From IMG/VR virus record IMGVR_UViG_2667527998_000010: a stretch of DNA of 15,861 bases; one strand, 5' to 3'. The DNA comes from a virus. Its lineage: Duplodnaviria; Heunggongvirae; Uroviricota; Caudoviricetes. Made by a program: the position numbers. Below, in pieces: positions 1 through 3,000 of the stretch. Numbering within the stretch: the first letter of the stretch is position 1; each line of letters starts with the position of its first letter.

Positions 1-3000
1 ATGAAAAAATTACTGCGTCTTTTTTTCCCGCTCTCGCTGCGGGTACGTTTTCTGTTGGCAACGGCAGCGGTAGTACTGGTGCTTTCGCTTGCCTACGGAA
101 TGGTCGCGCTGATCGGTTATAGCGTCAGTTTCGATAAAACTACGTTTCGGCTGTTACGTGGCGAGAGCAATCTGTTCTATACCCTTGCGCAGTGGGAAAA
201 CAATAAGTTGCATGTCGAGTTACCCGAAAATATCGACAAGCAAAGCCCCACCATGACGCTAATTTATGATGAGAACGGGCAGCTTTTATGGGCGCAACGT
301 GACGTGCCCTGGCTGATGAAAATGATCCAGCCTGACTGGCTGAAATCGAATGGTTTTCATGAAATTGAAGCGGATGTTAACGATACCAGCCTCTTGCTGA
401 GTGGAGATCATTCGATACAGCAACAGTTGCAGGAAGTGCGGGAAGATGATGACGACGCGGAGATGACCCACTCGGTGGCGGTAAACGTCTACCCGGCAAC
501 ATCGCGGATGCCAAAATTAACCATTGTGGTGGTGGATACCATTCCGGTGGAGCTAAAAAGTTCCTATATGGTCTGGAGCTGGTTTATCTATGTGCTCTCA
601 GCCAATCTGCTGTTAGTGATCCCGCTGCTGTGGGTCGCCGCCTGGTGGAGTTTACGCCCCATCGAAGCCCTGGCAAAAGAAGTCCGCGAACTGGAAGAAC
701 ATAACCGCGAATTGCTCAATCCAGCCACAACGCGAGAACTGACCAGTCTGGTACGAAACCTGAACCGATTGTTAAAAAGTGAACGCGAACGTTACGACAA
801 ATACCGTACGACGCTCACCGACCTGACCCATAGTCTGAAAACGCCACTGGCGGTGCTGCAAAGTACGCTGCGTTCTCTGCGTAGTGAAAAGATGAGCGTC
901 AGTGATGCTGAGCCGGTAATGCTGGAGCAAATCAGCCGCATTTCACAGCAAATTGGCTACTACCTGCATCGTGCCAGTATGCGCGGCGGGACATTGCTCA
1001 GCCGCGAGCTGCATCCGGTCGCCCCACTGCTGGACAATCTCACCTCAGCGCTGAACAAAGTGTATCAACGCAAAGGGGTCAATATCTCTCTCGATATTTC
1101 GCCAGAGATCAGCTTTGTCGGTGAGCAGAACGATTTTGTCGAGGTGATGGGCAACGTGCTGGATAATGCCTGTAAATATTGCCTCGAGTTTGTCGAAATT
1201 TCTGCAAGGCAAACCGACGAGCATCTCTATATTGTGGTCGAGGATGATGGCCCCGGTATTCCATTAAGCAAGCGAGAGGTCATTTTCGACCGTGGTCAAC
1301 GGGTTGATACTTTACGCCCTGGGCAAGGTGTAGGGCTGGCGGTAGCCCGCGAAATCACCGAGCAATATGAGGGTAAAATCGTCGCCGGAGAGAGCATGCT
1401 GGGCGGTGCGCGGATGGAGGTGATTTTTGGTCGCCAGCATTCTGCGCCGAAAGATGAATAAATATGTCCTTTTACCACTACATCAAGTCATTGATTCGAT
1501 CAAACAATTTTCATTGAAAAAGTGCCAAAAATCGCAAATTGACTACACCATTAACTACACCGTTCGGTGCACTGTATGAAACAACGTGGAACAAATAGAC
1601 ACAAGAAATATACAGGCGGGTAATCTTTCCAGGGGGAAGCGCACCAATTCATGAGGGGCGTTAATGTCGATATGGGGATCCCCATAACGGGGCTACCGGA
1701 TTTTTTTTCCGGTTAACCTTTAATCAGGCTGGTGGGTTTTACATACCCTTGATCACCGTAATGATGATCCAGATGTGCACCTTTTCCACCAATGGCGGAA
1801 AAGCTCCAACCGTAACGATGATCGCTATGGTTGCCTCGATGGTCTGCGTGGTCATTATGACCGTTCAGCCAGTGACCTTAATCAGAATTTTTCGCTAAAA
1901 AATGACGTTGGCCACGTCATCCGGAAAGCACAAAATCACGTCGATTTTTAATGAACGGTTAAACCGTCTTTTTGTCACGGTGTGTCACTGGTTGTCACTC
2001 TCCGTCACGATTGAGGTGGTGGTCATTCTGCCCGACCGCGCATCTTTGCGCTATCGGGAATATCAAACAGTTACCTCGCCGACTTCCTCAAATTGAGGTT
2101 TCCGAAAATATCAGAGCGGGTTAGCGATTAAGCTGACGAGTAATTAAACTGCGAAAATTTCGTAGTTTCTGAATATATTCCGGCCTGCTGGTTAACAGTC
2201 CTCAGATGTGAGGGATGTAGCCAGCGCAATTTTGCGCTTTGCTTTAATCTCAGTGAGTTACCGCCGTAACCGCTCCGGCTTCTTCCAGTGGTACGTGATT
2301 TTCTCCTTCTCCCGATACAGTTCAACGCGGCGATTGTAGGCCAGCATTTCCAGAACGCGGATCCGTATGTCGCGCATATCCGCATCATTAAGCTGGATAC
2401 CATCACGGCGCATCACCTCAGCAACAACACGCGCATAATTTTCGGCTGTCACGCTGTCCGGCTGCGTGGTCTGTTCGTCAGCCTGCTGGCTGATTCCAGA
2501 GACGCGGCGGATTAATCGCAGTATTTCGGCTTCTGTCATGCTGCTGACCTCATTACACCCCGCTAAATTCTTCCAGTTTCTGGCGGTGGCTGTCGCTTAT
2601 ATCAAAAGCAAAATCCTCATGCTCTGCCTGGAATGTACCAAACGCCATCAGCGCCGCTACGCTCGGGTCTATCTTGTTCGGTGATTTTTTCTTGTTCGGC
2701 TTGATATTGGCGTTCGCGTCACTCTGCATCACGACGTTACTCATCGACCAGGACAACACCGGATCGCCACGATGCACAATCACCCTGCGGTTAACAAAAA
2801 CTTCGAACGATTTCGCCGCCGGACTGAATCTGAGGTAGGTTTGCGGGAACGGCTCCACCTCAAAACCAGCCCCCTGTAATTGCGTCCTGAGATGCGTGGC
2901 GTTCCACGTATCAAAGCCCACCAGCCTGATATTAAATTTCTCCGCATCCTGCATGATGTCATCTCTGATCCGGTCGTAATCAATGCAGTCACCTGGCGTT

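Follow-up and report, generated by a model that had tools for sequence, protein, structure and literature searches.

The long non-coding stretch downstream of phoQ is probably the integrase-distal end of an integrated capsid-forming satellite

We examined the DNA immediately downstream of phoQ in a 15,861-nt stretch from a Caudoviricetes virus record (IMG/VR IMGVR_UViG_2667527998_000010; this whole stretch is called the window below). Between phoQ and the last gene of an inserted element lie 796 bp with no credible gene (1462-2257), in agreement with the initial annotation, which had given about 800 bp. This region probably represents the integrase-distal end of a capsid-forming phage-inducible chromosomal island (cf-PICI), integrated at phoQ and belonging to the type known as EcCIEDL933, O-island 51 (OI-51) or CP-933C. 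Both the satellite family and its integration site downstream of phoQ are already known; the finding is real and ordinary in kind. The motifs listed in the initial annotation are all there, one hairpin being displaced by a base; features additional to that list are a GTCAC array, a minus-strand intrinsic terminator, a Chi site, a 23-bp palindrome and a 38-bp imperfect direct repeat (Table 1).

The insertion point was found by comparing window 1300-2400 with 5,426 complete E. coli genomes. All of them match the phoQ part (1300-1469), only 223 extend into 1470-2257, and in the element-free genomes the match ends at window 1466-1469. In K-12 phoQ is followed by a 75-bp spacer and then roxA (ycfD); roxA is absent from the window and lies beyond the integrase in relatives, 248 bp beyond the integrase start in occupied genomes. 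The earlier proposal of an insertion at or near the phoQ 3' end with displacement of roxA was thus borne out. A direct repeat linking the two ends of the element, suggested as a check in the initial annotation, was also found: the 10-bp sequence AAATATGTCC occurs at 1460-1469 and again beside roxA, and an arm module of about 60 bp is present at both ends. The right junction was read in L215 (L numbers denote the contigs and loci compared here), a contig retrieved with the exact integrase protein and 100% identical to window 11632-15861. Here AAATATGTCC stands 174 bp beyond the int ATG and is followed by the native phoQ-roxA spacer and roxA. The same 10 bp are found in attL of the window, in attR of L002, L004 and L214-L217, and in attB of the element-free genomes, with one base different in K-12. 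Comparison of attB, attL and attR (Table 1) therefore places the crossover within AAATATGTCC, with the phoQ stop codon regenerated. We concluded that the island tyrosine integrase recombined its 10-bp core with the identical sequence at the phoQ end, that the phoQ stop was kept, and that the native phoQ 3' flank and roxA have ended up at the opposite end of the element. Alternatively, 1462-2257 could be native DNA of the lineage, with the true junction nearer 2257, as an island-free genome carrying all of this sequence would indicate. There is no such genome among the 5,426; the element-free genomes part from the window at 1470, and from 1489 on the sequence accompanies the element to the tqsA site. 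A native chromosomal origin is refuted by these element-free genomes and tqsA-site elements, and we give it practically no credence.

The identity of the element follows from its gene content and site. Core to core the island measures about 14.57 kb, within the 10-15 kb expected of a cf-PICI, and int and alpA lie together at one end. A Pfam search assigned Arm-DNA-bind_3 (PF13356, E = 5e-18) and catalytic (PF00589) domains to the integrase, recognized AlpA (PF05930), and also found a D5-type primase, a portal protein and the large terminase subunit (TerL). Relatives that are 93-97% identical are annotated with a major capsid protein, HK97 prohead protease, head closure, connector and HNH proteins, a P27-family small terminase subunit (TerS) and TerL, and no tail or lysis genes appear in their annotations. 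The gene set of a cf-PICI, with its own genes from capsid to TerL and none for tail or lysis, is therefore present, portal and TerL by Pfam and the rest through the annotation of relatives. EcCIEDL933 is the cf-PICI prototype, and the only one of these islands for which induction by a helper phage and packaging in small island-made capsids were shown experimentally (10.1101/2022.09.08.507074).

E. coli O157:H7 EDL933 has a homologue at the identical chromosomal site; this is OI-51, also called Sp7, which has been described between ycfD and phoQ (PMC3378721) and later received the name EcCIEDL933. The window element resembles EcCIEDL933 in this site, in its gene order (int, alpA, primase, PerC-like, capsid, protease, portal, connectors, HNH, TerS, TerL, 93-aa ORF) and in a long non-coding end of similar kind. 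It differs in that its non-coding end is only about 88% identical over about 70% of the length, with another allele after the Chi-bearing block described below, in that its capsid gene has a nonsense codon, and in its Shigella-like background: window 1400-2600 is 99.9% identical to S. flexneri SFBU1023. The same satellite family also uses tqsA as a further site. The phage collection gave no match, and in the plasmid collection only 4 plasmid or chromid records matched, all unannotated. A scan of the genome collection with the 17-mer TTAATCAGGCTGGTGGG gave 46 matches, 45 of them by chance in unrelated phyla, S. flexneri SFBU1023 being the only relevant one. In the public assembly collection, 12,435 blocks index the exact 409-aa integrase, which adjoins roxA in all four places that were inspected; the integration module with this integrase is extremely common.

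Beyond the core, the first ~225 bp of the island (1470-1695) probably form the integrase-distal arm of attP. Among elements at the phoQ and tqsA sites this arm is about 98% conserved from about 1489-1490 and almost invariant at 1527-1690, whereas satellites at other att sites have unrelated sequence in its place; it is therefore part of the integration module. The direct repeats ACTACACC reported earlier (1542-1549 and 1554-1561) turned out to belong to two tandem 12-mers. The two ACTACACC are the only copies in the window, where 0.23 are expected, and two or more were reached in 4/200 shuffles. In the integrase-proximal arm of relatives, ATTAACTACACC stands twice, 22 bp from the int ATG and in the same orientation as the distal pair, followed by the array TACAA-CGTGA-AACAA-GCTGG-AACAA. 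In the tqsA-site element the 12-mer is AGTGACTACACC (an AGTGAC variant) in both arms, a parallel change. Repeated non-core motifs (12-mer pair plus AACAA array) are thus found in both arms and vary together between them, as expected of a tyrosine-recombinase attachment site with arm-type sites.

In the attP sites of lambda, P4 and KplE1, Int arm sites are combined with phased Xis/Vis/TorI sites, and the int promoter lies inside the arm. The window element shares with them a short core at both junctions, an integrase with a separate arm-binding domain and direct repeats in both arms, and its second, helically phased type of repeat fits an excisionase-like winged-helix protein. Since int starts 174 bp from the core, its promoter must likewise lie in the arm. 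By position and by these precedents the 12-mers would be bound by the N-terminal arm-binding domain of the integrase. The window-type element differs from lambda, P4 and KplE1 in having one module in the same orientation in both arms, and in reusing the phased array at two internal promoter regions of the satellite; the sites here are predicted ones. At the outer end of the arm, the palindrome GGGGATCCCC noted earlier at 1674-1683 proved to be the centre of a 22-bp near-perfect palindrome, CGATATGGGGATCCCCATAACG, likely a site for a dimeric protein.

The second repeat type includes the 15-mer AACAACGTGGAACAA, which was correctly noted at 1580-1594 and recurs at 9219-9233. Allowing up to two mismatches it has 4 matches in the window (two of them near copies at 14550-14584) vs 0.06 expected (0/200 shuffles), and the pattern AACAA-N5-AACAA has 13 matches vs 1.7 expected, a number reached in none of 200 shuffles. 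Triple arrays in four satellites occur only at four homologous places, namely both att arms, upstream of the capsid gene, and the int-alpA interval; the array of the int-proximal att arm is present in L002, L003, L004 and L215. The spacers between the pentamers differ, the pentamers themselves and their 10-bp phase do not, and no triple array occurs in 25 kb of flanking chromosome. By analogy, these arrays are a candidate site of a directionality factor and regulator of the AlpA/Xis type. An AlpA/Xis-like protein of the island may bind the helically phased arrays, act as directionality factor and regulate alpA and the packaging operon; one protein at the arms, at alpA and at the capsid operon could couple excision to early and late transcription. 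The literature searched gave nothing applicable on AlpA binding sites in PICIs and no report of a four-site AACAA array.

The arm ends at a short conserved block (1696-1742). Its hairpin CCGGA-T7-TCCGG had been described before and exists, one base to the left of the coordinates 1697-1713 first assigned to it. The block, with the consensus T7-8-CCGGTTAA-nnn-TTAATCAGGCTGGTGGG-y-TTTAC, is invariant in 10 satellites while both its flanks are allelic, and these 10 comprise at least three kinds (cf-PICI, prohead protease/capsid-fusion type and TerS-only) at four att sites. Among 52 unique variants, which were sampled via the neighbouring 93-aa gene and not via the block, the block was found in 41, and 39 of these 41 keep the Chi octamer. 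At least one Chi in the orientation of the block is present in 45 of the 52, the opposite orientation in only 10; in relatives Chi also recurs in a second context, between unrelated flanks. Judged by this sequence comparison, the block is common to satellites with different integrases and packaging modules and marks the border of the integration module. We take it to be the linker of that module to the rest of the satellite, with Chi as its one recognizable functional element; inspection by eye gave no convincing sigma-70 -10/-35 pair on either strand.

No other 8-mer is as frequent in the satellite as Chi: it has 13 copies (Table 1), where the runner-up has 7 and shuffles predict 0.47. Relatives carry 14-17 copies; in four of them the density is 0.9-1.1 per kb vs 0.15-0.19 per kb in the flanking chromosome. 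The enrichment persists when synonymous codons are shuffled in 13 genes (10 observed vs 1.7 expected; 0/500 shuffles). Chi enrichment in PICIs was not reported in the literature searched. Temperate phages without a RecBCD inhibitor are Chi-rich, according to the summary of Bobay et al. (2013) in PMC8791490. The satellite shares with such phages, which rely on host RecBCD/RecA, a high Chi density with Chi as the top 8-mer; it differs in being a satellite and not a phage, and the function of its Chi sites is a prediction from sequence. The enrichment fits the known pattern of Chi-rich temperate phages. If the satellites are directly selected for Chi, the block may be kept as the first correctly oriented Chi for RecBCD entering from the terS-proximal DNA end, or it may be kept for its place exactly at the border of integration-module exchange between satellite types.

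Between the block and the 93-aa gene, 1743-2257 (about 515 bp) appears from sequence comparison to be a variable slot at the satellite end, gene-free here and able to hold genes in relatives: L005 has a Q-family antiterminator there, and L057 a hypothetical gene together with a PerC-family regulator. Gram-negative PICIs have a variable accessory region at the integrase-distal end. The slot resembles it in lying between the last packaging gene and the att site, in its mosaic make-up and in holding genes in some relatives, and differs in having no intact gene in the window element. Comparison of the alleles further shows a spacer built of reiterated gene-end/hairpin modules and decayed ORF fragments, which are gained and lost by short-repeat recombination. 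The two GCGCAnnTTTGCGCT modules (Table 1) look like the 93-aa gene's 3' end including the hairpin, and as direct repeats they flank a 186-bp presence/absence segment (2053-2238). L004 is without exactly this segment, L002 has a third copy of the module, and another relative is without about 1985-2245. The GTCAC array is found in several satellites with different packaging modules and is absent from others, including L003. The 93-aa gene itself (phrog_1561) is the terminal gene in at least three satellite kinds (TerL type, prohead protease/capsid-fusion type and TerS-only) and is always followed by one kind of non-coding end, so that gene and end travel as one module.

The working parts of the spacer are likely transcription terminators. 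The minus-strand terminator at 1896-1920 would end the packaging-operon transcript before attP, and the T-tailed plus-strand hairpins (1955-1972, 2146-2168 and 2223-2238) would halt read-through from phoQ. The last of these, which contains the palindrome AGCGCAA-TT-TTGCGCT found exactly where it had been annotated, would keep plus-strand transcription from entering the packaging operon at its 3' end. We infer that the terminators keep packaging-operon transcription out of attP and phoQ and shield the operon from transcription reading through from phoQ.

A 38-aa hydrophobic ORF on the minus strand (1739-1855; MTTQTIEATIAIIVTVGAFPPLVEKVHIWIIITVIKGM) had been listed as possible. The ORF exists, and its first ~24 codons with the ATG recur in relatives, so that a genuine small gene might lie here, either the ORF itself or the His/Gly-rich frame that overlaps it, for instance one for a type I toxin or for a peptide that binds metal. 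The His/Gly-rich frame is open for 53 codons in the window, ending VKPTSLIKG*, and in the Q-carrying L005 it has a start codon and makes an ORF of 60-78 aa; the conserved block, read on the minus strand, gives the C-terminus of this frame and its stop, VKPTSLI(K/N)x-stop. However, the frame has no start codon in the window and is intact only in the relative with the Q antiterminator, and L003, the EDL933 allele and others have interrupted or altered frames in this segment. Among the alleles the C-terminal half shifts frame by slippage in a G run, ends differently or is deleted, and a manual comparison of the window with L003 gave at most one synonymous change among six substitutions in either frame. 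No ORF of the region matched Pfam or PHROG, and the His-rich frame has 4 related proteins among 5.8 billion, all Escherichia hypotheticals or unnamed. A toxin or small-protein gene was therefore rejected for the 38-aa ORF, whose frame is not conserved together with its start codon, and a real small gene in either frame is very improbable.

We rate it slightly less probable still that the region is the cos or pac packaging site of the satellite. Being conserved, non-coding and placed where the packaging operon ends, it could fit such a role; cos sites are found in classical E. coli PICIs (PMC6739421), and the four GTCAC repeats could resemble small-terminase binding repeats. On the other hand, no lambda-type cosN is present, and the GTCAC array is missing in L003 despite the same terminase type. 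A packaging site should co-vary with the terminase type and adjoin terS, but the same sequences occur in satellites with packaging modules of the TerL type, the prohead protease/capsid-fusion type and the TerS-only kind, and a better candidate, GC-rich and conserved, is located in the usual place just upstream of terS (L002 23309-23430). A cos site in 1462-2257 was accordingly rejected.

Four masked runs of N interrupt the HNH/terS/connector region of the window (4546-4607, 5045-5191, 5455-5514 and 5738-5789), the first of which hides both the start of terS and the GC-rich stretch which, in relatives, makes the best cos candidate. When S. flexneri SFBU1023 (L008 ~3095-3100) is compared with L002 23290-23400, the cos-like segment is found fused to terS at about codon 9 via a CCCCGCC repeat; the deletion removes the terS start, another sign of satellite decay in Shigella. 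In the window, the major capsid gene (7846-9051, minus strand) has TGA at 8176-8178 vs TGG (Trp) in relatives, about three quarters through the protein. With this premature stop, the capsid-forming satellite is probably defective in the present copy.

A small regulatory RNA (sRNA), or more than one, encoded at about 1700-1975 is unlikely, yet it is the strongest of the alternatives. On the plus strand it could run from the promoter-like TTTACA-16-AATGAT (1738-1765) to the hairpin and T-run at 1955-1972; on the minus strand it could end at the 1896-1920 terminator. In its favour, besides the promoter-like site and the terminators on both strands, the minus-strand RNA of 1740-1870 folds with z = -4.46 (0/200 shuffles fold as well), several alleles by eye keep a -35-like TTTAC with a hairpin and T-run shortly downstream, and EHEC O-islands were reported to be rich in sRNAs (PMC8565820). 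However, the promoter count shows no excess over shuffles (1 vs 1.4 expected), 1743-1847 is deleted in some satellites, and the literature searched describes no sRNA in OI-51. Rfam gave nothing in the whole window at the gathering score and nothing in 1400-2400 even at E <= 10, and no tRNA or tmRNA was found. Folding an alignment of nine distinct alleles gave a covariation term of +1.41 with a double change in 1 of 21 pairs, so that the good single-sequence z-score goes without the compensatory changes of a structured RNA. Two named sRNA candidates were also rejected: Esr41 lies in OI-43/SpLE1 and not in OI-51/CP-933C, and the Pas sRNAs come from lambdoid prophages and are unrelated. A Fur box over the plus-strand promoter-like site matches at 12-13 of 19 positions, but 31 equally good matches are spread across the window, and it was likewise discarded.

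We therefore prefer the reading of 1462-2257 as the integrase-distal satellite end, with several points on the other side. The right-hand junction was read from relatives and one genome identical over 4.2 kb, not from the window, and the "empty accessory slot" is based on only two gene-carrying relatives. Position and analogy are the grounds for pairing the 12-mers with Int and the AACAA arrays with AlpA, and these partners might be exchanged or might be different proteins. The reading offers no explanation for the 22-bp palindrome, the GTCAC array or the conservation of the block beyond the 8-base Chi, and the fold of the minus-strand RNA 1740-1870 would not be expected for pure junk.

Table 1. 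Positions of phoQ, attachment-site, block, spacer and other features in the window
Feature	Position	Strand	Description
phoQ	1-1461	plus	intact 486-aa ORF, stop TAA 1459-1461; annotated phoQ in all matching genomes
attL core/overlap AAATATGTCC	1460-1469		common to attB, attL and attR; overlaps phoQ stop codon
attB			GAATAAATATG(C/T)CC-ATACTTCACGC
attL (window)			GAATAAATATGTCC-TTTTACCACT
attR			GATAAAATATGTCC-ATACTTCACGC
Integrase-distal attP arm	1470-1695		inherited together with this integrase type
Tandem 12-mers ATTGACTACACC + ATTAACTACACC (ATTrACTACACC)	1538-1561	plus	candidate arm-type sites for integrase N-terminal domain
AACAA-CGTGG-AACAA-ATAGA-cACAA array	1580-1604	plus	contains the 15-mer AACAACGTGGAACAA; 18 bases after the 12-mers
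22-bp near-perfect palindrome CGATATGGGGATCCCCATAACG	1668-1689		0/200 shuffles match; perfect in some relatives; outer arm end
Junction block	1696-1742		hairpin CCGGA-T7-TCCGG 1696-1712, minus-strand stops in all three frames, Chi GCTGGTGG
Chi octamer GCTGGTGG of the block	1728-1735	plus	exact match
Dispensable hairpin-rich segment	1743-1847	minus	38-aa ORF and overlapping His/Gly-rich frame; absent in L058, L059
Intrinsic terminator AUGACGU-GGCCA-ACGUCAU + U6	1896-1920	minus	-10.1 kcal/mol, 9-bp stem; conserved in A1, A2
Weak terminator-like hairpin ACGGT-TAA-ACCGT + CTTTTT	1955-1972	plus	
GTCAC x4, exact 10-bp spacing	1974-2008	plus	only here in window; count reached by 1/200 shuffles
Two modules, palindrome GCGCAnnTTTGCGCT + ~23 nt ending GTTACC	2038-2075, 2224-2262		38-bp imperfect direct repeat
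23-bp palindrome AAACTGCGAAAATTTCGTAGTTT	2146-2168		perfect in L002; looks like bidirectional terminator
Hairpin AGCGCAA-TT-TTGCGCT + T-rich tail	2223-2238	plus	-10.4 kcal/mol
Last satellite gene, 93 aa, phrog_1561	2258-2539	minus	function unassigned; stop 2258-2260
Second AACAA array	9219-9243	plus	three perfect repeats; ~170-220 bp upstream of capsid gene, directly after terminator
Third AACAA array	14540-14584	minus	five repeats, 10-bp phase; between int stop and alpA
Integrase	14632-15861	minus	409 aa; window end coincides exactly with its start codon
Chi copies (1470-15861)	1728, 5806, 7750, 11308	plus	
Chi copies (1470-15861)	2918, 6251, 7255, 7383, 9432, 9694, 11047, 13809, 14970	minus	

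The finding mainly confirms where and how a well-known satellite class sits in the chromosome and leaves the understanding of the system unchanged. For annotation it gives exact coordinates of the att core, advises against calling the 38-aa ORF and marks the element as probably defective here. By inserting on the stop codon of phoQ, the element takes the place of the phoQ 3' flank and shifts roxA 14.6 kb away. The 4-6-fold enrichment of Chi suggests that these satellites depend on escaping RecBCD, and in cf-PICIs the AACAA arrays are a candidate binding motif connecting excision with alpA and the packaging operon. That the satellites are directly selected for Chi on both strands and, at the same time, that the arrays form a small AlpA regulon is a tentative joint reading, which we consider possible but more probably wrong than right. 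If true, such a regulon of both att arms, the alpA region and the capsid operon would mean a physical coupling of excision to early and late transcription in Gram-negative PICIs.

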